From Polyangiales bacterium (lineage in GTDB: Bacteria > Myxococcota_A > Polyangia > Polyangiales > Polyangiaceae), in contig JBBRLQ010000002.1 of assembly GCA_038231275.1 (NCBI GenBank), positions 597,647 to 661,646 of the forward strand: DNA of 64,000 nucleotides. The letters run 5' to 3'. The position numbers and the translations under genes are program-made. The notes under the pieces are model-generated. The model did no database searches. It was not told the origin of the DNA and worked only from the letters and a program-made list of their open reading frames with translations. Below, piece by piece: positions 2,322-18,322 of the stretch. The stretch's first letter is position 1, and every line of letters begins with the position of its first letter.

Positions 2322-2635
2322 TCGTCCATCTCCTCGAGCAACGCTCGAAGCCCTTCGAGCCGTTCGACCCAGAACGCTTGGTAGTGCGCGATCCAATCGA
2401 CGAGCGGGCGCAGCCCCGTCAGCTTGACGCGGTAGTAGACGAGGCGGCCCTCGCGACGCTCGTCGACGAGGCCCGCCTCACGAAGCACCGCGAGGTGCTG
2501 GGACACGGCCGGCTGCGAAATGCCCGCGCGAGGGGTGAGGTCCCGCACGGCCGCCTCGCCCTTCGTCAGCTGCTCGAAGAGCGCTCTGCGACTCGGGTCG
2601 GCCAAGGCGCGGAAGACACGGTCCTGGCTGAGCAC
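2318..2635 (-). CDS. ArsR/SmtB family transcriptional regulator
   Basis: VFRALADPSRR...ISQPAVSQHLAVLREAGLV...REGRLVYY winged HTH. Confidence 0.92.
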   Translation of the reverse strand: MLSQDRVFRALADPSRRALFEQLTKGEAAVRDLTPRAGISQPAVSQHLAVLREAGLVDERREGRLVYYRVKLTGLRPLVDWIAHYQAFWVERLEGLRALLEEMDE

Positions 2636-2639
2636 GTCA

Positions 2640-2670
2640 AATCAATAAGCCACGGCTTATTGATTGTCAA
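2640..2670 (-). promoter_or_regulatory. 12-2-12 inverted repeat (probable ArsR operator) next to a TTGACA -35 element
   Basis: AATCAATAAGCC-AC-GGCTTATTGATT at 2640-2665; TTGACA on the minus strand at 2670-2665; directly upstream of the ArsR start. Confidence 0.8.
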
Positions 2671-2683
2671 GTCAGCCCCGCGC

Positions 2684-4468
2684 TCAGAGCCGTGGGCGCC
2701 ACATCGCGGTGCCGAGGACCATGAAGGCCTTCACGTCGTCGCCGGTGATGGCCTCGCCTTGCACCGTGAAGAGGAGCACCGAGCTCGGAAAGATCATCGC
2801 GGTGCCGCCGAACGCCGACTGCACGAGCGAGGAATGGATCGAGCGGTATTGAATGGTCGCGTAGCGGTAGTAGCTCGAGAGATCGAGGACATCGCGGAAG
2901 AGGCTCACGCCCGGGCCCGCGCTGCCGCCGTACATGTCGAGGTAGGTCGCGTGCGAGTAGTTCGCGGACGCGTCGATGCGAAGGATCTTGGCGATGCGAA
3001 CGACCCGGGCCGCGGCGAAACCGCCCGTCATGCTCGGCTCGTCGCTCACGCCGAGATCGCCGACCCTGGTGCCGCCGAGGACCAGCGAGAACGTGCCCAG
3101 CTCGACGCCGGCGTCGATCGCGCCGACCGCCCGCTTGCTCACCTTTCCGTCGCACACCTCGGGGGCCGGAGGAGCGCCGACGGCGGCGGGGATGGTTCGG
3201 CAGAACCAGGTGATGGGCAGGTACGAGGCGAGCCAGCGCGAGCGAATCGGTTGGCGAATGTCGGTACGGACGCCGAATTGGAAGGGGCCGATGCGCGTCG
3301 ACGCGTCGAAGCCCGCGGCGGTGAGCTCGATCGCCGAAGCTCCCCAAGGGTTGTCCTTCGAAAAATTCGTGACCTCGAACGTGCCGCCGATGCGCGCGGG
3401 TCCTGGGTAGATCCCGACCACGCCCGAGACGCGGCGCTCGTCGAGAGATCCGCCGAACGTCGTGCCGTGCGCGACGAGCGCGGCTTCGGGGCGCAGGTCC
3501 GCCTCCGGTCGACTGAACGCTGCTTCTACGCCGAAGCGCTGCGCGTCGACGGCCGGCGCGCCGCTCAGCGGATCGGGCAAGACGCCGCCGAACGCGCCGA
3601 CCGAGAATCCGCCGCCGACGGGCGCCCGCAGGCGGAGACCGTCGAGCGTGCCCAGCGTGCTCGCCGCGTAGCGCATGCGCCCGATCCCCGCGAAATAGCC
3701 GGCGCGGCTGTAGCTGGCGAGGGCCTCGCGGAGCCAGATCGTCGGACGCGCCGATCCCCCATCGCGTGTGCTGAGGGGCGTCGCGGCCCAACGCTGGACC
3801 GACGCGTCGAAGTCGAACGCGACCGGCGCGGCGAACGGCTCGGCGTGGATGCGCGCGTTGATCTCCACGTGGCCGATCCCCGCGCCACGCGGCCCGATCG
3901 GGAGCAGCGCGCCCGCCGATGTCGACAGACGAACGTCCCAACGCCGGCTGCGCTCCGCGTCACCCAGGGGGACATACTTCGGCTTCTGCGCGCTCGCCGG
4001 CGCGGTCTCGTCCGTCCACCCCTGCTGCCACGTCGCCAGCGGCCGCGGCGGCGGGAGCTCCTTCGCCTTCTCGGTATCCTCGCCGACGATCGAAGCCTTC
4101 CCCTTCTCCTGCTCGCGGAGGAGATCGTCGCCGGTGTCCACGATCGCGAACGACGCGGTCGATTGGACCACCGGGTATTCTTTGCGATCGATCGTGACCT
4201 TCGATCCTCTGTGCACGCCGCCCGCGGTGCCCGGCTTCACGTACGCCGCGCGGCCCGCGACTTCGACGACGACGACGTCGATCGACGTGGCGCCGCGCGG
4301 AGGAGGAGCCGGCGGAGGCACCGACACTGGACCGGGGGCTGGCGCGGGGACGTGCGCAGGCGCGGGCAGAGGCTTGGGCTTCGGCTTCCGCTGCGCCGCG
4401 GCCGTCGACGCGACGAGGCTCACGGCGAGCGCGAGGAGGCTCGCGACGTGGAGGATCGAGAGCCTCAT
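2684..4468 (-). CDS. Secreted protein, probable outer-membrane beta-barrel (candidate porin of a porin-cytochrome complex)
   Basis: Signal peptide MRLSILH...AAAQ, Pro-rich linker, then about 400 aa of alternating Gly/aromatic amphipathic strands (GFSVGAFGG, FGVEAAF, RIDASANYS, DLSSYYRY). ATGA-coupled to the decaheme gene. Confidence 0.65.
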   Translation of the reverse strand: MRLSILHVASLLALAVSLVASTAAAQRKPKPKPLPAPAHVPAPAPGPVSVPPPAPPPRGATSIDVVVVEVAGRAAYVKPGTAGGVHRGSKVTIDRKEYPVVQSTASFAIVDTGDDLLREQEKGKASIVGEDTEKAKELPPPRPLATWQQGWTDETAPASAQKPKYVPLGDAERSRRWDVRLSTSAGALLPIGPRGAGIGHVEINARIHAEPFAAPVAFDFDASVQRWAATPLSTRDGGSARPTIWLREALASYSRAGYFAGIGRMRYAASTLGTLDGLRLRAPVGGGFSVGAFGGVLPDPLSGAPAVDAQRFGVEAAFSRPEADLRPEAALVAHGTTFGGSLDERRVSGVVGIYPGPARIGGTFEVTNFSKDNPWGASAIELTAAGFDASTRIGPFQFGVRTDIRQPIRSRWLASYLPITWFCRTIPAAVGAPPAPEVCDGKVSKRAVGAIDAGVELGTFSLVLGGTRVGDLGVSDEPSMTGGFAAARVVRIAKILRIDASANYSHATYLDMYGGSAGPGVSLFRDVLDLSSYYRYATIQYRSIHSSLVQSAFGGTAMIFPSSVLLFTVQGEAITGDDVKAFMVLGTAMWRPRL

Positions 4469-5499
4469 CGGCGCGCTCCTCCCGGGTGGCAGCTGAGGCA
4501 CGAGGCACCGTCGCTCGCGACCGGTTTCTTGTGCTGCTGCATCAGGCGCATCGGATCGTGCGTGTGGCAGCCGATGCATCGCACCGCGCGGGGCACCGCC
4601 GGCGAGGAGTGGCAGTCCTCGCAGGTCGCGGTGCGGTGCACGCCGAACGAAATCGGGAACCGCAGATCGTGGCCGGCCGGCGCAGCACGCAGACCGCTCG
4701 TCACCGCGCTCGTCCCGGTTCCTGGGATCGTCGCCGGCACCCACGCGATCGCGCGGTGGCAAAGGCTGCAATCGCGAGGGAACGGCGGGGTCGTGGCGTC
4801 ACCCACGTGAGAAGGCCGCAGATCAGGCCGGCGGAAGTCCTTCTCGTGACAGGCGAAGCACTCGATGGGCGCGCCCGTCCAGCGGTGCTCGCTGGCGCGG
4901 CGATGGCACTCCGAGCAGTCCGCGAGCACGTGCATCCCGGTCAGCGGGAAGCGCGTCATGCGATGGATCTCGAGCGGCCTCGTCACCTTCCATCCGGCCG
5001 GCGAGTGGCAGTTGTCGCAGGATCGCGAGAGGCGCCCGCGATGGAAGTCCTCGTGGCAGCTGATGCACGATCGCTTGATGGCGCGCGTGCTGTTGTGGCA
5101 CGAGACGCACGACGCGTGAATGTGCTGTCCGGTGAGCGGAAAGCCGGTGGTCGAGTGATCGAACTTCACCTCGCCGCCCGCCGCGTCCTTGTCCTTCCAC
5201 GCGGTGGTGGAGTGGCATGCGCTGCACGCAACCGCGTCGGTGAAGCTCCGCTTGGCGGCCGCGCCCGCGGGGGATGGCGAGGTCGCGGCCTGCGTTGCGG
5301 ACGGGGCCGGTGCGGCGGGCGGGGGGGACGAGGCCGACGGCGGCGGCGGGGCGGACGAAGCGGACCACGCGGACGGCGCCGGCGCGAGAGGCGGGGGGCC
5401 GCCCGCCGGGGTTGCGCCCGGCTGCGCAAACGCGATCGGAGCGAGCGCGGCCACGAACAGGCACAGCGCGAGCGCGAGGGTGCGGGGCGCGGTCGTCAT
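4465..5499 (-). CDS. Decaheme cytochrome c, periplasmic (344 aa)
   Basis: Sec signal, Pro/Ala linker, 10 CxxCH motifs counted, H-x4-FPLTGxH spacers. Confidence 0.92.
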   Translation of the reverse strand: MTTAPRTLALALCLFVAALAPIAFAQPGATPAGGPPPLAPAPSAWSASSAPPPPSASSPPPAAPAPSATQAATSPSPAGAAAKRSFTDAVACSACHSTTAWKDKDAAGGEVKFDHSTTGFPLTGQHIHASCVSCHNSTRAIKRSCISCHEDFHRGRLSRSCDNCHSPAGWKVTRPLEIHRMTRFPLTGMHVLADCSECHRRASEHRWTGAPIECFACHEKDFRRPDLRPSHVGDATTPPFPRDCSLCHRAIAWVPATIPGTGTSAVTSGLRAAPAGHDLRFPISFGVHRTATCEDCHSSPAVPRAVRCIGCHTHDPMRLMQQHKKPVASDGASCLSCHPGGARR

Positions 5500-7337
5500 A
5501 GCTCCGCCCGCGCTTCGTGAGGGTTGGCGTGGCAGAACTTGCACTCGTTCGACGAGAGCCGCCACCGGATGGTCGGCTTGGCTTCACCGCGTACCGGCGC
5601 CATCGCGTGGCACTTCACGCACTCGGCCTTCGCGTGCTTCCCGGTCAACGCCCAGCCGGTGATCGCGACGTGATCGAAGCCCGGGATCTTGAACGCCTTC
5701 GTCGAGTGACACTTGTCGCACTCCTGCACCGGGGCCTTCATGCGGAACTGGCCGAGGTGAATGTCCTCGTGGCAGCCGCCGCAGTTGCGTGGCACGCCGC
5801 GGTAGCTCGCGCCGCTTCCCTTCTTGCGATCTTCGGGCGTCGGGTGGTGGCAGCTGTCGCACTGGGCCGTGGCGTGCACGCCGGTCAGCGGCCAGATGCG
5901 GTGATCGATCTTCGGGAGCTTCCATCCATTCGACTCGTGGCACTGCGCGCAGCCCCCGATCGCCATCTCTTTCGCGAACTGGTTGCCGTGCGGATTCGCG
6001 TGGCAGTCGGCGCACACTTGCTTGACGACGTGGAGATCCATGCGCGGGCGCGCCGCCTTGTGGCACTCGGAGCACGGCGTCGCGATGTGCTTGCCGATGA
6101 GCGGGAAGCGCGTCGTCGCGTGCGAGACCACGCTGAAGAGCGTGGGATAGAACCCCGGCGTCGCGTGGCACGGAGCGCACTCGCCTTTGTCCGCCTTGAC
6201 GAACTCGCCCTTGTGCTTGTCCTCGTGGCAGTCTGCGCAGCGACCGAACGCGAGCTTTCGGTAGCGTGCCTCTCGTGGGATCTCCGGTTTGTGGCAGCCC
6301 GCGCACGGCGTGGCCTCGTGCTTGCCGGTGAGCGGGTACTCTGTCCGCGGATGGGCGGCGAGGCCGACGGACCGCGCCAGACCGAGCCACTGGATCGACG
6401 CGTGGCAGCTCCCGCACGCGCGTCCGAACGGCGCCTTGTGGATCGGCCGATGGCACGACGCGCACTCTCGTCCCTTCGAAGGTGCGACGAGGTTGCCCTT
6501 GTCGTGGCACGTCTTGCACGCGACCTGCGCGTGTCCGTTGCCGAGGCTCGTGCCCGGATGCTTCGCGCCGCCGTGCTTGAACGTCACCGGCTTCCACTTC
6601 GTGTCCTCGTGGCAGTCGGGGCACGACGGACCGAGGCGCCCGTCGTGGACGTCCTTGTGGCAATCCTGGCAGACGGCGAACTTGAGCCCGACGTACTTCG
6701 GCGGCTCCATGTGGCACTTCGCGCAGAGGACCTTCTGGTGCGCGCCGCGCAGCGGAAACTTCGAGAGATCGTGGTCGAAGGTCTTGAGGTTGAGCTCCTT
6801 CCACGCCGTCTCGTTGTGGCAGTTGAGGCACGTCGCTCCGAAGCGCCCTTGGTGTTGATCCTTGTGGCACGGCACGCACGTCGTCCCGAGGCCGAGGAAC
6901 GTCGGGTTGCCGCGCGCGTTGCTCTTGGTGTGGCACTTGTTGCACGCCGTCGTCTGGTGCGCGCCGTTCAGCGGCCAGCCGGTCTGCGCGTGATCGAGCT
7001 TGGTCTGATCTCCACCGGGCCATCGCATGAGCGCCCTCGCGCCCAGGTGCTCGGCGTGGCATTTCTCGCACGCCTGCCCCTTGAACTGGCGGCCGTGGAG
7101 GCCTTGCCCCGCCGCGATCCGCCCGCCGAGATCGCCGTGGCACTTGAGGCAGCCGCTCTGGTCGACGCGCTTTCCGGAGCTGTGGCATTCGCTGCAGTGC
7201 GTGTCTCCTTCGAGCGAGGCGTGCGCCTTCGACATCGGCCCCGGCGAAAGAAGCTGCGCGCGCGCGACACGGGCGGACACCATCACCAGAAAGGCGACCG
7301 CAACGCCGAGGACCACGCGGACGAGCGTCCGCTTCAT
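5496..7337 (-). CDS. Multiheme cytochrome c with 23 CxxCH motifs (613 aa)
   Basis: Signal MKRTLVR...ARAQ, then SPGPMSKAHASLEG and 23 CxxCH motifs in triheme repeats separated by [FWY]PLxGxH. TAATG overlap with the upstream gene. Confidence 0.93.
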   Translation of the reverse strand: MKRTLVRVVLGVAVAFLVMVSARVARAQLLSPGPMSKAHASLEGDTHCSECHSSGKRVDQSGCLKCHGDLGGRIAAGQGLHGRQFKGQACEKCHAEHLGARALMRWPGGDQTKLDHAQTGWPLNGAHQTTACNKCHTKSNARGNPTFLGLGTTCVPCHKDQHQGRFGATCLNCHNETAWKELNLKTFDHDLSKFPLRGAHQKVLCAKCHMEPPKYVGLKFAVCQDCHKDVHDGRLGPSCPDCHEDTKWKPVTFKHGGAKHPGTSLGNGHAQVACKTCHDKGNLVAPSKGRECASCHRPIHKAPFGRACGSCHASIQWLGLARSVGLAAHPRTEYPLTGKHEATPCAGCHKPEIPREARYRKLAFGRCADCHEDKHKGEFVKADKGECAPCHATPGFYPTLFSVVSHATTRFPLIGKHIATPCSECHKAARPRMDLHVVKQVCADCHANPHGNQFAKEMAIGGCAQCHESNGWKLPKIDHRIWPLTGVHATAQCDSCHHPTPEDRKKGSGASYRGVPRNCGGCHEDIHLGQFRMKAPVQECDKCHSTKAFKIPGFDHVAITGWALTGKHAKAECVKCHAMAPVRGEAKPTIRWRLSSNECKFCHANPHEARAEL

Positions 7338-8245
7338 TAGAAGATCCACCGAAAGCCGTAGTACCAGGCGACGCCGATGTGCACCGACACGCTGAGGACC
7401 ATCAAGAGCGCGAGGAAGCGATGAATCGAGCGCCACGAGCGCATCACCGCTCCGCCGGCGTGCGTGTCGACTTCCGAGGCCGCGAGCTGGCCGAGCTCCT
7501 CGATGAGCGCGCGAACGAACTTGGGGTCTTTTACTTCGACCACGCGCGCGAGCTTGTCGCCTCGAACGGCCTCTCCCATTCCGCGCCGCCGTTGCCTGGC
7601 CTCGAGGATCCAACGCGGCATCGTCACAACCGCGCGAAAGATCGACGCGTCGGCCGGGAGCCGCGTCACCGGCGCCGTCTTGACGAACTCCTCCACGCGC
7701 TTCGCGACGCCGGGCAACAGCGGCTGAATCTCCGCGAGTCGGTCCTTGAGCGGCTTGAGACCCGCCTTTGGGACGAGCGCGTAGAGGTAGAGGCCGATGA
7801 GGCCCGTGAGGACCACGATGCCGAGGCTCACCGACGTGAGCGTCGCGATCGGCGTGCGCAGCTGGAACGCCGAGTGGAACACCACGAGCAGCGACCCCAC
7901 GAGCCCGGTGAAGACGTGGATGTTGAGCCACGTCTTCATGGTGCCGAACGAGTCTGGGATGTAACGGGCGAACCGCCGCCGCACGAGGTAGAGCAGGTTC
8001 GTCAGGATCAGCGCGGTCCCGACGATGCCGTAGCCGTGGCCCAAGAACCCGGAGGGGCTCAGCGTCCGGAAGTCCTGATGGTCGACGCGGGCGTCGAGGG
8101 AGAGCCGGTAGTAGCTCATGCCGCGCCAGAAGAGGAGCGCGGTCAGGAGCACGAGAATGAGCACCGTGAGGACCAGCGCGATGCGCCGCGGCTTCGCCGG
8201 CTCCGGCCCACCCGCGGGTCCGCTCGTCGTGACGACCTGGCTCAT
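7337..8245 (-). CDS. Polytopic inner-membrane protein, cytochrome b/ferric-reductase-like
   Basis: About 5-6 hydrophobic helices with paired His residues: WLNIHVFTG...VVFHSAF and WRSIHRFLALLMVLSVSVHIG (each pair 13-14 aa apart). Confidence 0.7.
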   Translation of the reverse strand: MSQVVTTSGPAGGPEPAKPRRIALVLTVLILVLLTALLFWRGMSYYRLSLDARVDHQDFRTLSPSGFLGHGYGIVGTALILTNLLYLVRRRFARYIPDSFGTMKTWLNIHVFTGLVGSLLVVFHSAFQLRTPIATLTSVSLGIVVLTGLIGLYLYALVPKAGLKPLKDRLAEIQPLLPGVAKRVEEFVKTAPVTRLPADASIFRAVVTMPRWILEARQRRRGMGEAVRGDKLARVVEVKDPKFVRALIEELGQLAASEVDTHAGGAVMRSWRSIHRFLALLMVLSVSVHIGVAWYYGFRWIF

Positions 8246-8365
8246 TGGCTCCCCAGGAGACCAGAGACGCGCGCGCTCGTACCAGACAAATCCGGCGCAC
8301 TCCTGCCCTCCGCGATCGATCCTCGAGCGGATCTTCGGCTCAGCGTCATCCGTGCCTGGTGTGAA

Positions 8366-8989
8366 TCAGAATCCGTCGGAGCGGCGCGCCGCGAGTGCGA
8401 CCGCGCTCACCGTCTGCGGCGGCGCCCGGCGAGGCGCGCGAGTGGCCTTGCGCGAGTTTCTCTTCTCCGGCGTCGCGGTGGCCGACGGCGCGTCCTTCGC
8501 CGGCTTCGCCTCCGGCGTGATCGGCTTGGCGGCAGGGGCGACCGGAGAGACCGCAGCGAGCGGCGAGACCGGTGCGACGTTGGTGACCGTCGGCGGTGCA
8601 GCGATCGGCGCGGCGACCGGCGCAGGTGCAGGCGCGGCTACCGCGGCGACGACTGCAGGAGCAGCGACGGGCGCATCCGTCGCGCCGCGCCCCAGAACGA
8701 TCGCGTGCCCTCGCTCGACGATGAACGACCGCGTCGACCCATCCACGAAGATCGCGCCGACGACGACGAGGAGGGCCGCGGCGATTACGTACCGGACCTT
8801 CCCGTGACGCTTCTTCGGGGCGATGCCCTGAAGCGCGTTGAAGAACGCCGGGCTCAGCTCGACGAGGGCCGTCTGAATTTCCGTGAGCGACTCGAACGCC
8901 CTGCGGATGACCGGCGGGTCGTAGTCCGTCGCGTCTAGGAGGGCCAATCGACGCGCGCTCGAGGGGGGAGGGTTAGCCACGTTCGACAT
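8366..8989 (-). CDS. Hypothetical single-pass membrane protein with Pro/Ala-rich tail
   Basis: TM segment YVIAAALLVVVGAIFV; low-complexity C-terminus. Confidence 0.6.
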   Translation of the reverse strand: MSNVANPPPSSARRLALLDATDYDPPVIRRAFESLTEIQTALVELSPAFFNALQGIAPKKRHGKVRYVIAAALLVVVGAIFVDGSTRSFIVERGHAIVLGRGATDAPVAAPAVVAAVAAPAPAPVAAPIAAPPTVTNVAPVSPLAAVSPVAPAAKPITPEAKPAKDAPSATATPEKRNSRKATRAPRRAPPQTVSAVALAARRSDGF

Positions 8990-9195
8990 GCGCTCTGTAG
9001 GTGGGGTGCCAGCCTTTGGAGGCGGCAGGAAAGAGCAGTCACCGGCAAAAAATCGCCTGCTTACCTGGATCTTCGACGCACCGGCGGCGTCGCGCCGCGC
9101 GCTTGAGCTATCGCCAAATGACCATGAATCGCGTAGTTAGAGTGGATCGTAAACGATCCAGCCGCTCGTTGCTCCTCTAGTTAGTACTCCAACGC

Positions 9196-10386
9196 CTACT
9201 TCACGCCGGCCGCGTGGCACTTCAGGCAATAGTTCGTCGTCACGTCCCCGGTCGGGTAGTTCGGGACGGGGCCTCCGCCGTCGGGCCGTGAGAGGTGCCA
9301 GGCGTCGATGGCCGGGCTGACGTGCGAGCCGAGGTGGCAGTGGATGCAGTCGGTGTTCGCGCCGCCGGCCGAAACGCCCTTCGCGAGGACGTGGCAATCC
9401 TGGCAGGTGATGCCGGGGTTCGCGTGGATGCCCGTAGTCACCGCGAACTTCGCCTCGGGGTGAGGCCCAGTGATCGCCGGCTTCCAGCCCGCCATCTGGT
9501 GGCAGTTGAGGCACGTATGCGGGAACGTCGAGTGGTTCGGGAACGTGCTCGCATCCGCAGCCGCCTTGTGACACGCGTAGCAATCGGTCGTCGTGCCTTT
9601 GTACACGGGCGTCGGGCCCGTATGGCAGCCGACGCACGCGACGAGGACGTGCTTCCCCTGAAGCGGCCACGTGTGATTGTAGGAGCTCGGCTTCCATCCG
9701 GCTGCCGTGTGGCAATCCGAGCAGCTCGTGGAGAGCCCCTTGTGGATCGGGCTCGCCGCCTTGTCGGCATCCTTCTGGTGGCAGTCGGTGCACCCCTTGG
9801 GCGTGCCCTTGTAGAGCGGCGGATCGCCGGTGTGGCAGGAGTTGCACGGCGTGGTCGCGTGCACGCCGTCGAGCGGCCACGGATGCTGGAACGTCGACGG
9901 CTTGAACCCGACGTCGTTGTGGCAAAGCTTGCAGTCGAGCGGAAAGCCGGTGTGCTTCGGAGCGGTCGCGCCGTCGTAATCTTTTTTGTGGCACCCCTGG
10001 CAGTCCGTCGGCGTTTCGTTTGGATGGAAGCCGGTCGTGTGGCACGCCGTGCACGTCGGGCCCACGTGCTTGTTCTGGAGCGGCCACCAGAAGTGGTTCT
10101 GCACTTGGGCGGGAACCCAGCCCTGCGTCGAGTGGCAGTCGTTGCACGTGTTCGGCAATTTGCCGACGTGCACGGGGTTCGCCGCCGCGTTGTAGCCCGC
10201 GGCGTGACACGAGTAGCACGCGGTGTTCTTCGCCTCCGCCGTGTCGTGGATGTTCTGCTGCCGGCCACACGCGAACGCGGCGACGAGCGCGGCGACGCCC
10301 AACGAAATCGTCAGGGCCGCGTGCGCTCGTCCTTTGGGGAGTGTGGCCGGTGGCTGCATCTCGTTCCGTTGCCTCGATGAGTCCAC
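9196..10386 (-). CDS. Multiheme cytochrome c lipoprotein, 14 CxxCH
   Basis: Lipobox AAFAC, 14 CxxCH motifs, WPLxGxH spacers. The start could instead be the ATG of MQPPA. Confidence 0.92.
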   Translation of the reverse strand: MDSSRQRNEMQPPATLPKGRAHAALTISLGVAALVAAFACGRQQNIHDTAEAKNTACYSCHAAGYNAAANPVHVGKLPNTCNDCHSTQGWVPAQVQNHFWWPLQNKHVGPTCTACHTTGFHPNETPTDCQGCHKKDYDGATAPKHTGFPLDCKLCHNDVGFKPSTFQHPWPLDGVHATTPCNSCHTGDPPLYKGTPKGCTDCHQKDADKAASPIHKGLSTSCSDCHTAAGWKPSSYNHTWPLQGKHVLVACVGCHTGPTPVYKGTTTDCYACHKAAADASTFPNHSTFPHTCLNCHQMAGWKPAITGPHPEAKFAVTTGIHANPGITCQDCHVLAKGVSAGGANTDCIHCHLGSHVSPAIDAWHLSRPDGGGPVPNYPTGDVTTNYCLKCHAAGVK

Positions 10387-10397
10387 CTAGCCGCGGC

Positions 10398-13300
10398 TCA
10401 CCACTTCGAGGCGCCGTGGCATGTGCTCGTGCACGCCAACGTCGTCGTATTGTACGTCGTCATCTTCGGGCCCGCGACGTCCTTCACCCCATTGAGGTGA
10501 AGGGTCATGTTGACGGTGCCCGCCCCGTTCTTGTGAGTGTAGCCGGTGCCGTGGCAATCGCCGCATACGTTGCCGCTGTGCGTGCCGTGCTTACCCGTGC
10601 TCGGCGGCGTGGTGTGGCAGGAGCCGCAGACCATCGCTCCGCCGGTCCAGGACGGCGCGAAGGCGGTGGTGCCACCGGGGAAGTCGCCGTGGCAATACGA
10701 GTTCGTGCAGGTGGTGCCGTTCCACGCGGGGACGACGCCTCCGGTCTTCGCGAACGCGCCGAAGTTCACCTGCACGACGCCGTCGCTGTGGAGGTTGGTC
10801 GACGGGACGGCGTGGCAGTCGTTGCACTGCACCGGCTTGGCGGCGAATGTGGCCTTGTTCAAGTGGCCCTGGTGAGCGCCGACCGCGAGGGTCGTCGTCG
10901 CGGTCTCGCCCTTGGTGCCGAGCGGAGGCGCCGAGGTCTGGCGGGTGTCGGCGCCTGCGATTCCGACGCGCGTGCCGTCGCCGTGGCACGAGTAGCAGCT
11001 GAGCGAGCTCTGATCGACATCGATGACGCCGTTGATGTGCGTCGTCTTGTTGACCGTTTTGCCAGTCGCCGAATAACCGGCGCCGTGGCACGCGGAGCAA
11101 ACGATCGCGGGGTTCGCGTGCGGCGGAGTGGCGGGAGGCGCTCCGTGGCACGAGGCGCACCCGATGGTGAGGTTGGTCCACGTCGCCGTGGCGTTCGCGC
11201 CGCCGGAGAAGTCGCCGTGACAGTACGACGTCGTGCACGTCGCGCCGCTCCACACCGGCGTCACACCGCCGGTCTTGGCGAGCGTGCCCCAGGACATGTC
11301 CACCTTGCCGTTGCTGTGGCTGTTGCTGATCGGGACCACGTGGCACTCGTTGCACTGGGTGGGCGTGGCGAACGTTCCGGTGTTGACGTGGCCGTCGTGC
11401 GCGCCGACCGCGCGCGTCGAGGTCGCGGTTTCACCCTTCGAGCCGTTCGGCGGCGACGCCTTCACCTGAGGATCGGCGCCTGCAACGCCCGCGCGCGCCG
11501 TCGTGCCGTGGCACGAGCTGCACGTCATCGTGGTCTGGTCGACGTCGATGACGCCGTTGATGTGGGTGGTCTTGTTGACCGTCTTCGCGGTCGCGTCGTA
11601 GCCAGCGCCGTGGCACGACGCGCACGGGGTCGCCGGGTTCGTGTGCGCCGGAGTCGCGGGCGGCAACGCGTGGCACGAGCCGCACGTGACCGTCCCGGTG
11701 CCCGTCCAGGTTGGCGCGGCCGCGGTGTTTCCACCGGTGAAGTTGCCGTGACAGTACGACGCCGTGCACGACGTTCCGTTGAACGCCGGAGCGACGCCGC
11801 CCGTCTTGGCGAGCGCACCGAAGAGCATGTCGATCTTGCCGTTGCTGTGCGCCGTGCTGATCGGAACGACGTGGCACTCGTTGCACTGGATCGGTGTGCT
11901 GAAGGTCCCCGTGTTGACGTGCGCTTGGTGCGCGCCGACCGGGAGCGTCGATCCCGCAGGCGAGACCGGTGGAGACGCCGCCACATCCAAGTCCGCGCCG
12001 GCCACGCCAACGCGCGTCGCCGTCCCGTGGCACGAGGTGCACGTGAGGTTGCCGTTGCCGGTGGGCGTGTCGATGACGCCGTTGATGTGCGTGGGCTTGT
12101 TGACGGTCTTCGCCGTCGCGTCGTAGCCGGCGCCGTGGCAGGTCGCGCACGGAGTCGCGGGGTTCCCGTGCGGCGCGACGCCGGGGTTGGGCGGCAACGC
12201 GTGGCACGAGCCGCACGCCTGCGCGCCGGGAACCGCCCACGACGGAGTGTTCGCGTTGGCGCCGCCGGTGAAGTTGCCGTGGCAGTAGTTGTTGCAGCCG
12301 GTGCCGTTCCACGTCGGCACGGCGCCCGCGGTCTTCGCCAACGCGCCGAACAGAATGTCCACGACGCCGTTGCTGTGGTTCATGCTCGTCGGCACGACGT
12401 GGCAATCCGCGCACTGCAGCGGCTTGCCGGTGAGATCGAGGGCATTGACGTGCGCCGCGTGCGCGCCGACCGCGCGCGTCGTGGCGAGCGTCTCGCCCTT
12501 CGAGCCGATCGGCGGCGCCGACTTGATGTTCGGATCTGCGCCCGCGACGCCGACGCGGGTGAGATCGCCGTGGCACGAGCTGCACGTGGCCGACGTAGTG
12601 TTCACGTTGACGGCGCCGTCGATGTGCGTCGCCTTGTTGACCGTCTTCGCGGTCGCCGAGTAGCCCGCGCCGTGGCAGGTGGAGCACTCCATCGCCGGGT
12701 TCGAGTGCGGCGGCGTCGGGGGCGGCGTTCCGTGGCACGAGCCGCAGTTCATCGGCCCGCTGGTCCACACCGGGGCCGACGTCGTCGCGCCTCCGGGGAA
12801 GTTGCCGTGGCAATAGCTGCTCGTGCAGGAGTTGCCGTCCCACACGGGAGACGCGCCCGCGGTCTTCGCCATGCCACCGAACGCGATGTCCACGATGCCG
12901 TTGCTGTGCGACATGGCCGTGGGGATGACGTGGCAGTCCGCGCATTGGAGCGGATTGGCAGACCAGTCGGATTTGTTCACGTGCGCTTGGTGCGCGCCGA
13001 CGGCGCGATCGGTCGTGAGGACCTCGCCGTTGGTGCCCTTCGGCGGAGCCACCTTCAGGCTCGGATCGGCGCCCGCGATGGCGACGCGCGTGGCGTCACC
13101 GTGGCACGTCGTGCACGTCGCGTTCGGGGGAACCGCGCCGGCGCAGAACCCGACGTAGTCGGCCTGCATCCACGCTTCGAACGCCTGGAGCTCGGCGGCC
13201 GTGGCGGGGTTGTTGAATGCCGACGGCGGCATCGGCGTCTGGATCTGCTGCATCCTCTCGAACGCGACCTCTCCGACGGTCTTGCTCTTGTCCACGGTCG

Positions 13301-13625
13301 ACCACTGGACCATGTCGGCCGCGGTCATGAGCGGGACGAGCGCGCCGCCCGCCGGCGGGTTCGAGTGACACACCTGGCATTTGGTGGTGAGGAGCGTCTT
13401 CACCTCGCACGTGAAGCCCGCGCCTTTCGGCAGCTGCGCCACCGGCCGGGGCGGACCGCCGAGCTCGTTCGGAATGCGATTCGCAGCCGTCGGCCCGGGG
13501 ACTCCGATCCCGTCGGCGCCCGCATCCTGCGCGCCCGCGTCGTCGGATTTGGCGCTGCACCCGAAGAGGAGCGCGCAGGCGACGAGGCCGGCGGCGAACC
13601 ATGCGAAGGGCGAGCGGACGACCAT
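10398..13625 (-). CDS. Large CxxxxCH/CxxCH-repeat multiheme cytochrome c lipoprotein (about 1075 aa, 27 heme motifs)
   Basis: Lipobox LLFGC; 21 CX2CH, 4 CX4CH and 2 CX3CH motifs; five tandem 173-181 aa pentaheme repeats. Confidence 0.92.
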   Translation of the reverse strand: MVVRSPFAWFAAGLVACALLFGCSAKSDDAGAQDAGADGIGVPGPTAANRIPNELGGPPRPVAQLPKGAGFTCEVKTLLTTKCQVCHSNPPAGGALVPLMTAADMVQWSTVDKSKTVGEVAFERMQQIQTPMPPSAFNNPATAAELQAFEAWMQADYVGFCAGAVPPNATCTTCHGDATRVAIAGADPSLKVAPPKGTNGEVLTTDRAVGAHQAHVNKSDWSANPLQCADCHVIPTAMSHSNGIVDIAFGGMAKTAGASPVWDGNSCTSSYCHGNFPGGATTSAPVWTSGPMNCGSCHGTPPPTPPHSNPAMECSTCHGAGYSATAKTVNKATHIDGAVNVNTTSATCSSCHGDLTRVGVAGADPNIKSAPPIGSKGETLATTRAVGAHAAHVNALDLTGKPLQCADCHVVPTSMNHSNGVVDILFGALAKTAGAVPTWNGTGCNNYCHGNFTGGANANTPSWAVPGAQACGSCHALPPNPGVAPHGNPATPCATCHGAGYDATAKTVNKPTHINGVIDTPTGNGNLTCTSCHGTATRVGVAGADLDVAASPPVSPAGSTLPVGAHQAHVNTGTFSTPIQCNECHVVPISTAHSNGKIDMLFGALAKTGGVAPAFNGTSCTASYCHGNFTGGNTAAAPTWTGTGTVTCGSCHALPPATPAHTNPATPCASCHGAGYDATAKTVNKTTHINGVIDVDQTTMTCSSCHGTTARAGVAGADPQVKASPPNGSKGETATSTRAVGAHDGHVNTGTFATPTQCNECHVVPISNSHSNGKVDMSWGTLAKTGGVTPVWSGATCTTSYCHGDFSGGANATATWTNLTIGCASCHGAPPATPPHANPAIVCSACHGAGYSATGKTVNKTTHINGVIDVDQSSLSCYSCHGDGTRVGIAGADTRQTSAPPLGTKGETATTTLAVGAHQGHLNKATFAAKPVQCNDCHAVPSTNLHSDGVVQVNFGAFAKTGGVVPAWNGTTCTNSYCHGDFPGGTTAFAPSWTGGAMVCGSCHTTPPSTGKHGTHSGNVCGDCHGTGYTHKNGAGTVNMTLHLNGVKDVAGPKMTTYNTTTLACTSTCHGASKW

Positions 13626-13685
13626 GGTGTCCGTGAGTGCCGCGGGCTCTCCGAAAGGTTGCACCAACGTTGGCGGAAAATCGCC

Positions 13686-13703
13686 ACGGGTGGATCCACC
13701 CGT
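13686..13703. promoter_or_regulatory. Perfect 18-bp palindrome upstream of the large cytochrome gene
   Basis: ACGGGTGGATCCACCCGT; function unknown. Confidence 0.4.
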
Positions 13704-13744
13704 ATCCAGGATCGCTTACGATCCAACGAAATTCGGCCGATTTT

Positions 13745-14479
13745 TCAATGTTGCACGAGGGTCCCCATCATCGTGTCGAACTCGGCGCGCGCCGCGAGGA
13801 CCGTCTTCGCCGGGCCGGTGATCTTGAAAAAGTGGGGCATTCCGGCCGTCGCGACGATGGACCCGAGCAACGCCCAGCCCGCGCCGCCATCCTTCCCCAT
13901 GCCGCCTTCGAACTTGCCCTGGACCTCGACGATCGTGACGGCGAGCGCGCCGACGTTGCGTGTGCTGCGCTTCGCCGTCTTGCGCGATTCGGCGTCGAAC
14001 TGGCCGACCCATCTGTCCGCGTTCGCTTCGACCGAGCCGCCTGCTTGCGTGATCGAGAGCTCCGCGTCCTCGGTGTCCCCCGGCGCGCGCGGCACGCGGT
14101 AGGTGGCGAGGCGCATCGTGCTCGCGTTCGGAACGAGCACCCACCGCGCCGGCGCCTTGTACTCGAGCGACGACTGCGCTCCGGCGGGAGACGGATTCAG
14201 CTGCGAGCCCGTGGGATCCAGCGGATCGACCGCAGGATGCCCCGCCGGCAACGGCTGCGCGCCCATCGGATCGGCGCCGCCCGTCGGCGGGTGCCCGGGC
14301 GGCAGCGGCTGGTCGTTGTCGACGAACGGCATCGCCGCAGGCGGCGGGCTCGACGGAGGAGACGTGGACATCGCCTCTGAGGCAGGCGGCGCCATCGATT
14401 TACCTGCGGCGAACGCAGCCGCAGAGGCGATGGCGACGAGGGCGAAGACCGAGGGGAGGCTGAGGCGCACATTGGTCAT
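13745..14479 (-). CDS. Conserved hypothetical exported protein with LPxGHP repeats
   Basis: Signal/TM, LPPGHP and LPAGHP, then STMRLATY, GGSVEANADRWVGQF and FFKITGP motifs. Confidence 0.75.
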   Translation of the reverse strand: MTNVRLSLPSVFALVAIASAAAFAAGKSMAPPASEAMSTSPPSSPPPAAMPFVDNDQPLPPGHPPTGGADPMGAQPLPAGHPAVDPLDPTGSQLNPSPAGAQSSLEYKAPARWVLVPNASTMRLATYRVPRAPGDTEDAELSITQAGGSVEANADRWVGQFDAESRKTAKRSTRNVGALAVTIVEVQGKFEGGMGKDGGAGWALLGSIVATAGMPHFFKITGPAKTVLAARAEFDTMMGTLVQH

Positions 14480-14591
14480 GACGTTAAGTGCATCCTACCG
14501 TCAGTTTTGCTCCACCGTTGTTCGCAGAATCTCCGTGATCCATCTTTGGGGATCGGAGTCGCGGCCTGCTACTGAGTAAATAAGGTGGAAC

Positions 14592-15260
14592 ATGGTGGAG
14601 AACGACCCGATGAAGACGAAGAGGCGTGCGCTCCGTGACTCGTTCATGCACATGTGGCCCCTCGTGCTCGCCGTACCGCTCTCTGCGCTCGCGTGCAGCA
14701 GCAGCAGCGCCAGCAAGTCCCAACCGGGCAACGATGGCGGCGCGCCGGGAGACGACGGTGGCCTGGCCGACGGCGCCGCAGGGGACGGCGGGCACGGCGA
14801 TCTCGACGCGGGGATCGATCCGTCGCTCAACCCCGATCCCAAGGACCTCGACCCGACCAACGGCGACCCGTCGCTCGACATCGGTGGCTCGCAGATCTAC
14901 TTCGACAAGGGCGCTCCGTGGGTGCGCGTCGAGTTTTACGGGGCGTGGCCGCCGGCCGCGACGGTGTACTCGTGGGCGTGCTCGGTGATCCTCGGCACGC
15001 AGAACGCGCCCGTGGTCACCTACACGGTTCAGTCCACGAAGGGAAAGCAGACCGATGCCGTCGACGGAATGGACAAGGCGAAGGTCACGCTCGCCGTCGA
15101 GCCGAGGGGCTTCCGCGTGCTGCTCGGGGACGCGACGCTCGTGTTCGATCGCTACGCCCTCGAGTGCAACGTCGAGTCGACGGACACCGGCACGATGGTC
15201 CAGGACACGAGCGGCTCCTTCGTCATCACCACGAAAATCGATCGCGCCTTCGGACCCTGA
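14592..15260 (+). CDS. Hypothetical lipoprotein
   Basis: Lipobox ALAC, Gly/Asp linker, beta-rich domain. Start uncertain. Confidence 0.7.
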   Translation: MVENDPMKTKRRALRDSFMHMWPLVLAVPLSALACSSSSASKSQPGNDGGAPGDDGGLADGAAGDGGHGDLDAGIDPSLNPDPKDLDPTNGDPSLDIGGSQIYFDKGAPWVRVEFYGAWPPAATVYSWACSVILGTQNAPVVTYTVQSTKGKQTDAVDGMDKAKVTLAVEPRGFRVLLGDATLVFDRYALECNVESTDTGTMVQDTSGSFVITTKIDRAFGP

Positions 15261-15296
15261 CGCGAATCGAACGGACGCCCTCTTCGAGCGTCGGTC

Positions 15297-16640
15297 TTAC
15301 TTCGACAACGGCTCTCCGTAGAGCGTTCGTATCCCGATTCCCATGCTCTTCAAGAAGTCGAAGGGCGGAATCGTCCCCATGAACAGGATGATGTAGTCGT
15401 TCGGGATCTCGACGCGCTCGCCCTTCTTGTCGAGGACCAACCTGTCCGGATGGATCTCCTTCACGCCGGTCGAGTAGAAAATGTGGACGAGCCCGGCCTT
15501 CTCCATCTGCTCGATTTTGATCTTGTTGTCGTCTTTGCAACGTGAGAGCGCGTCTCCACGCACGAGCAGGTGGACGGTGTTCCCGAGCTTCTGATCTCCC
15601 ACGCGCTGCGCCGCCTCGACCGCCGAGTCGCCGGCGCCGACGACGACGATCTTGCACCCCTGGTACTGCTCGGGGTCGCTCAGCTTGAAGGTGACCTTCT
15701 CGGTGTCCTCGTTCGGTAGCCCGAGCTTCCTCGGCGTGCCGCCCACGCCGACCGCGAGGATGACCTTCCTCGCGCGCACGATCCCGGCGCTCGTCTCGAC
15801 CTCGAAAACCTTTCCGTTGGTCTTCGCGTTGACGAACTTCACGCGCTCGTCGACTTGGAGGCCCACCTTCGCGCAGACGTCCTTCCAGTACTTGAGGAGG
15901 TCCTCCTTCACGATGCGGTTCTTCGGAAAGCTCATTTTCCCGATGAGCGGCAGCGCGGCGGGGTGGCTCATGACCAACTTTTGGCGGGGGAAGTTGTAGA
16001 CGGTGCCGCCGAACGTATTTTGCTCGATGCAGCGGAACTTGGCCTTGAGCTCGATGCACTTCAGCGACGCCGCGATCCCCGCGGGGCCCGCGCCGACGAC
16101 GAGGACGTCCACGTCGGCGGGAGCGGACCTGTCCAGGTTGGCGACCGCGTGGGTCGCCGCGTAGACGCCTTGCTTGATCGCGTTGGCGATGAGGCCCATC
16201 CCTCCGAGCTCGCCGGCGATGTAGAGACCGTGGACGTTCGTCTCGTAGTTCTCGTTGTAGTCGGGGACCTGCTTGCCGGTCTTCTCGCTGCCGAAGACCA
16301 TCGTGATCGCGTCGACGGGGCACGAGCGGTAGCAGAGCGTGTGGCCCACGCACTTGGTGGGGCTCACCAGCGCGGGTAGGCCGTTGACCATCTGCAAGAT
16401 GTCCCCTTCGGGACAGACCTGAGTGCAAATGCCGCAGCCCGAGCACTTGTCGAGATCGATCTTCGGGTAGAGGGCGTACGCGTCCGTCTTGCCGGACTTG
16501 ATGGTGGCTTGGAGCTTCTCTTCGGCCTTCTTATTTGCCTTCGCTCGGCGCCTTCCAAATATCGCGTAGATCACGATGGTGACGAGGATCACCAGGACGA
16601 CCGACAGACTGGTCTTGCTCAGGTTCGCTAAGAAATGCAT
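15297..16640 (-). CDS. Membrane-anchored FAD/NAD(P)H oxidoreductase with a 2x[4Fe-4S] ferredoxin domain
   Basis: N-terminal TM; CSGCGICTQVCP and CVGHTLCYRSCP; TNVHGLYIAGE, VVGAGPAG and VVGAGDSAVE motifs. Confidence 0.9.
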   Translation of the reverse strand: MHFLANLSKTSLSVVLVILVTIVIYAIFGRRRAKANKKAEEKLQATIKSGKTDAYALYPKIDLDKCSGCGICTQVCPEGDILQMVNGLPALVSPTKCVGHTLCYRSCPVDAITMVFGSEKTGKQVPDYNENYETNVHGLYIAGELGGMGLIANAIKQGVYAATHAVANLDRSAPADVDVLVVGAGPAGIAASLKCIELKAKFRCIEQNTFGGTVYNFPRQKLVMSHPAALPLIGKMSFPKNRIVKEDLLKYWKDVCAKVGLQVDERVKFVNAKTNGKVFEVETSAGIVRARKVILAVGVGGTPRKLGLPNEDTEKVTFKLSDPEQYQGCKIVVVGAGDSAVEAAQRVGDQKLGNTVHLLVRGDALSRCKDDNKIKIEQMEKAGLVHIFYSTGVKEIHPDRLVLDKKGERVEIPNDYIILFMGTIPPFDFLKSMGIGIRTLYGEPLSK

Positions 16641-17062
16641 CTCACGACCTCACCGTCCTTCGAAAATTCCAGCGTCACGAGGGGATCGTAGAGGGTCTCC
16701 TTGTACTTCCACTTCTTGCTCGCCCACGGGTTCCACGAGGAGTGCGCGGCGAGCGTCATCGTGCGGACCGTGCCGCTCTCGTGGAAGTCGAGCGGCGCGT
16801 TCGCCTTGACGTGAGCCATGACCCCGTAGGCGTCCAGCGTCGCCTCCTCGCAGAGGACGCACGACTTCAAGGTCCCGTCGGGGAAGAACTTCACGGCGTC
16901 ACCCGCCCTCAGCTTCACCTGACTCTTGGCGATCATCCACTCGGTGTCGATCTCCGGCACGAACGATTTGTAGCTGCCGTCCGGGTAGAGCTCGACGTGA
17001 GTATAGCCCGAGTTGTCCACCCAGTTCGTGGCGTCCTTCTTCTTCTCGTCTTCCTCGCCCAT
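16628..17062 (-). CDS. Hypothetical protein with MORN-variant-like repeats
   Basis: Repeats YPDGSYKS, FPDGTLKS, FHESGTVR, FSKDGEVV; overlaps the oxidoreductase start by 13 nt. Confidence 0.65.
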   Translation of the reverse strand: MGEEDEKKKDATNWVDNSGYTHVELYPDGSYKSFVPEIDTEWMIAKSQVKLRAGDAVKFFPDGTLKSCVLCEEATLDAYGVMAHVKANAPLDFHESGTVRTMTLAAHSSWNPWASKKWKYKETLYDPLVTLEFSKDGEVVRCIS

Positions 17063-17150
17063 GGTGCCCCCGCGCGTCCGCGTCAGGCTTCACGTTACCG
17101 CGAGGCATGGCACCACGACAGCTCCGGCTCGGATGGGCGCGCGGTCAGGG

Positions 17151-18263: not shown

Positions 18264-18322
18264 GGCGTAATCCTACGCGAGATTCACCGGTGGAGCGATC
18301 CTCGCCACCGACACAGGCAGAG

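Follow-up and report, generated by a model that had tools for sequence, protein, structure and literature searches.

In a 64,000-nucleotide stretch of the genome of a Polyangiales bacterium (GenBank assembly GCA_038231275.1, contig JBBRLQ010000002.1, positions 597,647–661,646; hereafter the window), ten genes between positions 2684 and 17062 encode a multiheme porin–cytochrome system and a membrane-anchored flavoprotein, together a candidate path for electrons from the cytoplasm to the cell surface. All of these genes lie on the minus strand, and GC content in the window is 63–71%. Translating the minus-strand open reading frames (ORFs) yielded 74 heme-binding sites, the number given in a first-pass annotation of this DNA. 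The sites are carried by four cytochromes, in all of which Pfam or NCBIfam detected cytochrome c7/c3-type repeats.

The core of the locus is a block of four overlapping genes for an inner-membrane protein (7337–8245), a 23-heme cytochrome (5496–7337), a decaheme cytochrome (4465–5499) and an outer-membrane beta-barrel (2684–4468). The overlaps reported earlier are present, with TAATG joining the membrane-protein and 23-heme genes and ATGA joining both the 23-heme gene to the 10-heme gene and the latter to the barrel gene; the start of the 23-heme gene is corrected from 7340 to 7337. The barrel protein has 594 amino acids and no heme sites, and comprises a signal peptide, a Pro-rich linker, a small N-terminal beta domain and a 22-strand barrel. 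An AlphaFold2 model built from a 34-row alignment (mean pLDDT 85.9) places the 22 strands across mature residues 150–564, as expected if this beta-rich protein is indeed a barrel. Searching the PDB with the model, Foldseek returned exclusively outer-membrane barrels (MOMP, Occ/OprD, AlgE and FimD; E about 1e-8). Because their TM-scores are low (0.3–0.5), the protein falls outside any solved barrel family, and it has no match among Pfam or NCBIfam families. Look-alikes of the barrel in the ESM Atlas come from Myxococcota and Planctomycetota and serve as leads only.

The decaheme cytochrome (344 amino acids, 10 CxxCH motifs) has a signal peptide and a Pro/Ala/Ser-rich linker and matches Pfam Cytochrome_C7 and Cytochrom_CIII; its gene has an ATGA overlap at both ends. 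By analogy with known porin–cytochrome complexes, it is the candidate for the cytochrome inserted in the barrel. A phmmer search of the PDB gave one weak match for it, to a nonaheme cytochrome (E 7e-4), and none for either the 23-heme or the 27-site cytochrome. The putatively periplasmic 23-heme protein (613 amino acids, 23 CxxCH, Sec signal peptide) matches Cytochrome_C7 at 84 bits. Its homologs carry 20–23 sites in 13 of 14 related loci surveyed, and 30 in one over-long ORF call.

Upstream of the block, heme-site counts together with a lipobox (LFGC) in one case and a cysteine at the signal-peptide end in the other bear out two proposed lipoprotein cytochromes. The larger (10398–13625, ATG at 13625; 1075 amino acids), a candidate extracellular cytochrome, has 27 sites, of which 21 are CxxCH and six CX3CH or CX4CH, and is built of five repeats of about 177 residues. 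NCBIfam TIGR01904, a CxxxxCH/CxxCH domain, matches it in five stretches with 177.5 bits. Among related loci fetched from other genomes, denoted here by L numbers, it has a strong homolog in L007 only and weak matches in L004, L005 and L006. The smaller (9196–10359; ATG at 10359, alternative GTG at 10386) has 14 CxxCH motifs, matches Cytochrome_C7 at 78 bits and is a candidate for the surface or outer membrane; a strict lipobox pattern was matched by its counterpart in 9 of 14 loci surveyed. By analogy with other conduits, both lipoproteins would be exposed at the cell surface.

The inner-membrane protein (302 amino acids) is a putative di-heme b carrier, as judged from alignment and modelling. 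Its model (pLDDT 77) has five long transmembrane (TM) helices and a helical loop of about 100 residues (159–270). Two W-x3-H-x13-H motifs, W106-x3-H110-x13-H124 on TM3 and W271-x3-H275-x13-H289 on TM5, flank a T147-G-x2-G151 motif on TM4, and all of these residues are invariant in 22 of 22 aligned homologs. The first-pass annotation had described a 4-His membrane protein. The four histidines of the two H-x13-H pairs do hold across the family, but six histidines are invariant in close relatives; of 123 relatives in the wider set, 73 retain H56 and 62 retain H70. Among the 122 wider relatives with both histidine motifs, TM4 reads TGxxG in 99, SGxxG in 18 and neither in 5. The positive-inside rule predicts a cytoplasmic N terminus and loop, which would place H110 and H275 near the cytoplasm and H124 and H289 near the periplasm, and the protein would carry two stacked bis-His b hemes. 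It matches DUF4405 (PF14358) below threshold and over TM5 only (22.5 bits against a cut-off of 26.7), and 13 of 120 listed homologs have a precomputed PF14358 match; a DUF4405 protein has been reported to bind heme b experimentally (PMC11334425). Database homologs number 792, the named ones being from Polyangiaceae, Labilithrix and metagenome-assembled genomes (MAGs) of Myxococcota, all annotated as 'hypothetical'. ESM Atlas look-alikes of the membrane protein, which are leads only, come from Gemmatimonadota, Acidobacteriota and Myxococcota.

The flavoprotein (15297–16640, 447 amino acids) is the candidate cytoplasmic electron donor. An N-terminal TM helix is followed by basic residues, two Fe-S motifs and a YpdA/TrxR-type FAD/NAD(P)H domain; Pfam matches are Pyr_redox_3 (133 bits) and Fer4_21/Fer4_10, that is, a Fer4 dicluster domain. 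The domains of the TM-anchored 2x[4Fe-4S]/FAD/NAD(P)H enzyme first proposed were thereby confirmed, with one amendment to its clusters. Motif 1 reads C66-x2-C-x2-C72-x3-C76P, whereas motif 2 is C97-x2-H100-x2-C103-x3-C107P, with histidine replacing the second cysteine. The FAD/NAD(P) domain has two Rossmann folds and no redox CxxC, as in ferredoxin–NADP reductases of the TrxR type. A profile of the family matched YpdA/Bdr (E 3e-38) and the ferredoxin–NADP reductases 3ab1, 2zbw and 3lzw (E 1e-24 to 1e-20) among solved structures. We rejected assignment to the YpdA/bacillithiol disulfide reductases (TIGR04018), given a score of 163.7 bits against a cut-off of 339.9 and the additional TM helix and ferredoxin domain. 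Recent horizontal transfer of the gene is likewise unsupported, because its third-codon-position GC content (GC3) of 0.899 resembles that of the other locus genes (0.84–0.91); its lower overall GC content, 0.618, accompanies what looks like a Lys-rich protein.

Scanning one genome per species, we obtained 72 loci, 57 of which are from Polyangia and have a clear homolog of the membrane protein; gene calls in these loci are tblastn-based, with approximate starts. Wherever the contig reaches far enough, the order membrane protein, 23-heme cytochrome, 10-heme cytochrome, barrel is invariant across the 57. The 23-heme gene comes immediately after the membrane-protein gene in every locus that has 1500 bp or more of downstream sequence (52/52), and the 10-heme gene (46/46) and the barrel gene after it (42/42) are present in all loci that extend far enough to show them. 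An extra small or medium multiheme gene (5–29 sites) occurs in 43 of the 57. A flavoprotein of the same architecture (about 438–445 amino acids: TM helix, two Fe-S motifs, GxGxxG) adjoins the block in 52 of 57 loci; among those with complete 10-kb flanks, the count is 28 of 29. The loci without it are L004, L006, L026 and L054, on short contigs, and L009. Its position varies, being divergent upstream in 42 loci (median gap 211 bp), co-directional upstream in 7 and after the barrel gene in 3. In L010, L051 and L056, the flavoprotein stop overlaps the membrane-protein start by 4 nt, indicating translational coupling. No flavoprotein gene was found in 14 Poribacteria loci, which matched a short motif only.

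Some loci depart from the common plan. L019 is expanded (5227–9876), with two flavoprotein genes and several extra multiheme genes, and in L018 genes for cytochromes with 29, 14 and 8 hemes precede the core block (4144–8510). In L058, from a Nitrospira MAG, a multiheme cytochrome gene comes after that for a weak membrane-protein homolog (37% over 115 residues; 534–2918); the locus has no flavoprotein match, with only 533 bp of upstream sequence.

The flavoprotein and the membrane protein are also found fused. A profile of the membrane protein retrieved 2353 relatives at E<=0.001 from 1.84 billion representative sequences, and of the best 150 of these, 14 have at least 700 amino acids. Pfam identified a fusion in 11 proteins of 739–761 amino acids and in two longer ones, with a Fer4 dicluster and Pyr_redox_3 at about residues 50–445 and the membrane domain at about 460–750. 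The motifs run in the order N-terminal TM helix, both Fe-S motifs, GxGxxG, a polar linker and both W-x3-H-x13-H. Searching the membrane domain of one such protein, P0309, against proteins of 412–1313 amino acids gave 344 matches, 120 of which were listed; the complete fused architecture is present in 110 of those 120, too consistently for a gene-calling artefact. The sources are labelled Myxococcus sp., Myxococcaceae, Archangium sp., Archangiaceae and Myxococcota MAGs, and include the isolate Myxococcus sp. RHSTA-1-4; the annotation is merely 'NAD(P)-binding domain-containing protein'. Two variants have insertions: P0375 (873 amino acids) has an FHA domain between its ferredoxin and flavin domains, and P0341 (949 amino acids) has about 200 additional residues preceding the membrane domain, which hints that these are regulated forms of the fusion. 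By the Rosetta-stone argument, fusion points to the flavoprotein and the heme-b protein being one electron-transfer unit, and therefore to an input from NAD(P)H through FAD and Fe-S to heme b, as in NADPH oxidases (NOX), rather than from quinol. The first-pass annotation had allowed that the flavoprotein and membrane protein might prove not to accompany the cytochromes in other genomes; their co-occurrence in 52 of 57 loci and these fusions speak otherwise.

A FastTree phylogeny of 110 flavoproteins, midpoint-rooted, resolved two clades, each with support of 1.0. Clade A holds 45 cluster-linked Polyangia proteins and 18 fused proteins, and clade B holds 24 Bdellovibrio-type and 22 window-type proteins, those of the window and L007 included; one fused protein stands alone on a long branch outside both. 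The motif-2 histidine is invariant in 47 of 47 aligned flavoproteins, in clades A and B alike. Position 2 of motif 1 is Cys in clade B, the window type, and Ser in 44 of 45 cluster-linked clade A rows, the sole exception being the frameshifted L040 row. These patterns suggest that one Fe-S cluster is His-ligated and that motif 1 of clade A binds a 3-Cys cluster, possibly [3Fe-4S] or Ser-ligated.

Among characterised extracellular electron conduits, MtrCAB with CymA in Shewanella and the Geobacter Pcc complex (OmbB–OmaB–OmcB) with ImcH or CbcL are fed by quinol. The locus resembles them in combining a periplasmic multiheme cytochrome, a barrel and a putative surface lipoprotein cytochrome as a candidate wire across the outer membrane. 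It differs in that its barrel has 22 predicted strands, compared with 26 in MtrB, and in that no quinol oxidase of the NapC/CymA, ImcH or CbcL type accompanies it. On the latter point the first-pass annotation stands: neither NapC/NirT nor NrfD nor any other quinol module was found by Pfam and NCBIfam among the ten locus proteins, or by Pfam among ten flanking ORFs. Membership of MtrCAB/MtoAB was rejected, given that TIGR03508 (DmsE/MtrA) matched the lipoproteins only, at 30.6 and 47.8 bits against a cut-off of 192.2; the 10-heme and barrel proteins matched no Mtr family in Pfam or NCBIfam. In the Tmc and Hmc complexes of sulfate reducers, a multiheme cytochrome c on the periplasmic side, a cytochrome b in the membrane and an Fe-S protein in the cytoplasm form a quinone-independent transmembrane chain of the kind we consider here. 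These complexes are built differently, from a NarI-like cytochrome b and an HdrD-like CCG protein, with neither an NAD(P)H flavin domain nor an outer-membrane module, and probably carry electrons inward to sulfate reduction.

The closest relatives of the locus core are the PCC3 and PCC4 (Ptd) porin–cytochrome clusters, to which class it belongs when set beside their published descriptions. The first-pass annotation's mention of similar cassettes in other phyla fits these reports (PMC5566968; bioRxiv 10.1101/2023.11.21.568154). PCC3 is described as four genes for a porin, an extracellular multiheme cytochrome (10–35 hemes), a periplasmic 21–27-heme cytochrome and an inner-membrane protein (PMC5566968, PMC10734462), is listed from Alpha-, Beta- and Gammaproteobacteria alone (PMC5566968) and is called functionally unverified in papers of 2023 and 2025 (PMC10734462, PMC12442390). 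The 22-strand model corresponds to the porin, the 23-site protein falls within the range given for the periplasmic cytochrome (PMC10734462), and the 14- and 27-site lipoprotein-type cytochromes, candidates for the cell surface, have site counts within that given for the extracellular one. The correspondence extends to the membrane protein, which in PCC3 and PCC4 has about 300 residues, five TM helices, W-x3-H-x13-H on TM3 and TM5 and SGxxG on TM4 (PMC5566968); ours has 302 residues, five modelled helices and both histidine motifs, and differs in reading TGxxG on TM4. The locus departs from the four-gene composition of PCC3 in its extra decaheme (46/46) and adjacent flavoprotein (52/57), and its host is a myxococcote rather than a proteobacterium.

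In its published description, the ptdABCDEFG operon encodes a porin along with cytochromes of four, five and ten hemes, and also a membrane protein resembling ferric reductases, a 2x[4Fe-4S] protein and an FAD/NAD(P) oxidoreductase; it is reported from Alpha- and Gammaproteobacteria, Nitrospirales and Planctomycetes, and its function is stated to be unknown (bioRxiv 10.1101/2023.11.21.568154). On our own reading of the two descriptions, which neither paper states, PCC4 and Ptd appear to be the same cluster. Ptd shares with our locus a cytoplasmic flavin/Fe-S input beside a porin–cytochrome output, with what looks like the same set of cofactors. There, the input is divided between PtdE (Fe-S, with a cyclic-nucleotide domain) and PtdC (flavin), compared with one TM-anchored polypeptide here; of the cytochromes only the decaheme corresponds, ours otherwise having 23, 14 and 27 sites, and Ptd/PCC4 is described without an extracellular cytochrome. 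The locus has cytochromes much like those of PCC3, with a further decaheme, and a cytoplasmic input that resembles the one in Ptd but is packed into a single polypeptide. Our literature search returned no description of such a cluster in Myxococcota or Polyangia, PMC11495043 included as far as its available text goes, and, within the text of the papers available, no fusion of a ferredoxin/TrxR-like protein to a PCC-type membrane protein and no explicit NAD(P)H-to-surface model. The searchable supplementary text of PMC5566968 has no mention of Myxococc, Sorangium, oxidoreductase or FAD; its supplementary figures, which hold the PCC4 domain drawings, lie outside that search.

The proposed input also recalls NOX and ferric reductases (FRE), in which NAD(P)H, by way of flavin, supplies a stacked pair of b hemes on H-x13-H helices, and electrons move outward (PMC3591440, PMC5566968). 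Membership of the NOX/FRE superfamily was rejected, as no Pfam ferric reductase or NOX FAD/NAD domain was matched at E<=0.01; by this test the geometry of the H-x13-H pairs is the sole shared feature. The dehydrogenase here is of the TrxR/YpdA type with a two-cluster ferredoxin domain, and the acceptor would be a multiheme wire rather than O2, Fe(III) chelates or, in the case of MsrQ, MsrP. MsrQ pairs with the flavin reductase Fre, and the split and fused forms described here parallel MsrQ plus Fre on the one hand and NOX on the other. In the available text of a 2013 survey of the ferric reductase domain (FRD) superfamily (PMC3591440), the terms 4Fe-4S, pyridine nucleotide, thioredoxin reductase and Myxococc do not occur.

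With these parts, the barrel fold, the conserved block, the adjacent flavoprotein and the fusions in view, we favour, at slightly better than an even chance, reading the locus as an NAD(P)H-fed trans-envelope conduit of the PCC3/PCC4 (Ptd) class, with the flavoprotein as its input and electrons flowing outward. In the cytoplasm, the membrane-tethered enzyme would pass electrons from NAD(P)H to FAD and on to two Fe-S clusters, one of them His-ligated. It would dock on the cytoplasmic face of the heme-b protein, with no quinol module as input, and electrons would cross the five-helix membrane protein from an inner heme b (H110/H275) to an outer one (H124/H289). By analogy with MtrCAB, the outer heme b would hand them to the 23-heme cytochrome spanning the periplasm, this to the decaheme lodged in the 22-strand barrel, and the decaheme to the surface lipoprotein cytochromes with 14 and 27 sites. 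At about 25 residues per heme, the 23-heme protein would be long enough for the periplasm, as has been argued for PCC3 (PMC5566968, PMC10734462). Fe(III) or Mn(IV) minerals, humics or O2 may be the final acceptors. The whole would amount to a bacterial NOX or ferric reductase extended through the periplasm and outer membrane.

The outward direction, a point that the first-pass annotation had left undecided, is proposed on energetic grounds. A negative-inside membrane potential would help exiting electrons, which favours outward flow, and inward flow to NAD(P)+ is disfavoured because donors far below −320 mV would be needed. On this reading, the path disposes of reducing power rather than conserving energy. 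Since it would run down the proton-motive force, the path would probably serve to balance redox state when oxygen is limiting, to acquire iron by reduction or to reduce O2, humics or Mn outside the cell.

The remaining genes of the locus are of less certain relevance. A 207-residue single-pass protein (8366–8989) with a long Pro/Ala/Val-rich tail and only weak, sub-threshold family matches is encoded immediately ahead of the membrane-protein gene, at the site taken in relatives by the divergent flavoprotein gene; it appears lineage-specific, with a full-length homolog in L007 only and partial weak matches in L006 and L040. A 244-residue protein with a signal peptide (13745–14479), encoded between the 27-site cytochrome and the flavoprotein, has homologs adjoining the barrel gene (37–45% identity) in L001 (15324–15986), L002 (15287–15655), L005 (15466–16044) and L040 (15402–15920), and elsewhere in loci L007 and L035; it may be an unrecognised component of the system. 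Upstream of the flavoprotein gene, 16628–17062 is a separate 144-residue ORF that overlaps the flavoprotein start by 13 nt and lies outside the enzyme, a revision of the first-pass annotation. Its sole homolog among the fetched loci (L007 8509–8901, 50% identity) is on the opposite strand between the 14-heme and 207-residue genes, away from the flavoprotein. Neither the 244- nor the 144-residue protein matched a Pfam or NCBIfam family.

Between the 244-residue protein and the flavoprotein lies an 817-bp gap (14480–15296; GC 0.652) without an assigned gene, whose sole ORF is a 126-residue low-complexity one (14501–14881); the gap may be a promoter or regulatory region dividing two transcription units. 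Scans of 2000–18500 found no promoter-like sites and seven terminator-like sites, below the shuffle mean of 10.2, and are uninformative on operon structure. A histidine kinase of 370 amino acids (17151–18263, minus strand; HisKA and HATPase_c) with a long charged coiled N terminus, and cytoplasmic, is encoded 88 bp upstream of the 144-residue ORF on the same strand, with no adjoining response regulator; it is a possible regulator of the locus. By Pfam, the flanking ORFs are unrelated to the locus, with DoxX_2, DUF1801 and AHSA1 on the downstream side and the histidine kinase, an aldo-keto reductase, glyoxalases and MarR on the upstream side.

Several observations weigh against an NAD(P)H-fed conduit at this locus. 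Foldseek of the membrane-protein model against the PDB gave nothing significant (best E 0.43, with STEAP1 at rank 49), and a profile search of PDB sequences gave a chance match alone (E 0.21). Outward flow by the proposed route would dissipate the membrane potential. The most direct objections concern the window's own flavoprotein, which the tree places in clade B, apart from the cluster-linked and fused proteins of clade A. It is 92% identical to the L007 protein, 50–53% to proteins named from Bdellovibrionales and 31–39% to the cluster-linked clade A proteins. Its gene is 7 kb upstream of the membrane-protein gene, behind the 817-bp gap, and is paired with the unrelated 144-residue ORF. Because of the different clade, the distance and the gap, that the locus has a flavoprotein of its own, and that this clade B enzyme would be the electron donor, is argued by analogy with the other loci. 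The first-pass annotation had proposed modelling the flavoprotein (15297–16640) with the membrane protein (7337–8245). With two hemes and two Fe-S clusters included, the predicted complex scored 0.53 (runs 0.57, 0.48 and 0.53), compared with 0.00 for the best of three controls; the runs share at least 58% of contacts, and partner pLDDT is at least 74. Of 157 solved complexes, 116 reached the mark used for this score, as did 2 of 215 mismatched pairs; at scores of 0.60 or below, just 18 of the solved complexes and both passing mismatches reached it. The custom alignments and ligands of our prediction differ from those of the calibration. The prediction therefore supports the pairing weakly, and we count that weakness too among the objections.

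It follows that the flavoprotein at 15297–16640 could be a chance neighbour, a clade B paralog, with the NAD(P)H mechanism right for the family and a clade A partner encoded elsewhere or another donor in its place. We consider this unlikely, although the placement of the window and L007 proteins with the Bdellovibrionales type, at full support for both clades, speaks for it, as do the distance, gap and overlapping ORF just described. L007 is moreover the only other locus so arranged and, at 93% membrane-protein identity, does not count as independent evidence. Yet neither the window nor L007 has a clade A gene at any of the three places where it usually lies; upstream of the membrane-protein gene, both have the genes for the 207-residue protein and the two lipoprotein cytochromes instead, an arrangement of which traces are also seen in the short loci L004 and L006. 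Within the 64-kb window, no locus gene has a second copy. The window flavoprotein is identical in architecture to its clade A counterparts, down to the invariant motif-2 histidine, the intervening 244-residue protein itself recurs in these neighbourhoods, and the score of 0.53 against 0.00 for the controls, for what weak support it gives, was obtained with the window protein. A weak lead in the same direction is a clade B protein (86%) and a membrane-protein homolog (65% identity) that are both listed with a longest contig of 31262 bp.

A quinone-coupled conduit, which we judge improbable, would make the di-heme protein a quinol dehydrogenase or quinone reductase like CymA, CbcL or hydrogenase cytochrome b, and the flavoprotein a side player, perhaps a dedicated NAD(P)H:quinone reductase, or an enzyme with a role in repair or regulation. 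Reactivity with quinones is common among di-heme b proteins that span the membrane. Two further facts, which also tell against our favoured scheme, fit here: L009, with full flanks, has the cytochrome block and no flavoprotein, and PCC3 as published lacks a flavoprotein, the authors who described PCC3 and PCC4 having hypothesised exchange between the membrane protein and the quinone pool (PMC5566968). The membrane protein may therefore use other donors, and the weak complex prediction leaves room for them. Against quinone coupling, the flavoprotein gene remains next to the block through rearrangements in 52 of 57 loci, three of them with translational coupling, and 110 of 120 listed Myxococcia proteins are covalent fusions, for which there would be no selection if quinones were the only link. 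Nor was a quinone-site motif identified, though none could be tested for. The idea of an NAD(P)H route that bypasses quinones, raised in the first-pass annotation, thus gains comparative support from co-occurrence and from fusion in relatives from Myxococcus and Archangium; for the window itself it is held back by the clade of the flavoprotein and the weak complex prediction.

Inward uptake, in which the conduit would oxidise extracellular Fe(II), Mn(II) or reduced humics and possibly feed NAD(P)+ through the flavoprotein, we regard as very improbable, because electron transfer from Fe(II) to NAD(P)+ (−320 mV) towards the negative side would be strongly uphill with no energy-coupling subunit found, and Polyangia are organotrophs. 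In its favour, PCC3 comes from genomes of iron oxidisers as a candidate iron oxidase, its inner-membrane component is reported as upregulated in iron-oxidising Sideroxydans cells (both PMC5566968, PMC12442390), and Mtr/Mto multiheme conduits are discussed as reversible (PMC10734462).

Beyond this locus, we think it possible, at somewhat less than an even chance, that Myxococcota own an unrecognised quinone-independent export machine, in which an NAD(P)H dehydrogenase of the ferredoxin–FNR (ferredoxin–NADP reductase) type is wired to a di-heme-b protein and, in Polyangia, to a wire of more than 70 hemes. The two partners would be separate in Polyangia and one polypeptide in Myxococcus and Archangium, and the machine would be a non-homologous analogue of the eukaryotic NOX and ferric reductases. 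To our knowledge, the quinone pool is the starting point of every well-studied extracellular electron transfer route in Gram-negative bacteria (by way of CymA, ImcH or CbcL), and we know of no reputation for electroactivity among Polyangia, to which it would be extended. If the machine exists, largely aerobic, predatory or polymer-degrading soil bacteria could discharge NAD(P)H onto external minerals, humics or O2, and might thereby balance their redox state, acquire iron by reduction or generate superoxide outside the cell. The membrane proteins of PCC3, PCC4 and Ptd in other phyla would likewise take electrons from cytoplasmic donors rather than quinols. For testing the idea directly, the fusion of about 740 amino acids, which a named Myxococcus isolate carries, is a conveniently small genetic part. 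A direct cytoplasm-to-surface path would recast the energetics and ecology of these widespread clusters as those of an electron dump rather than of respiration.

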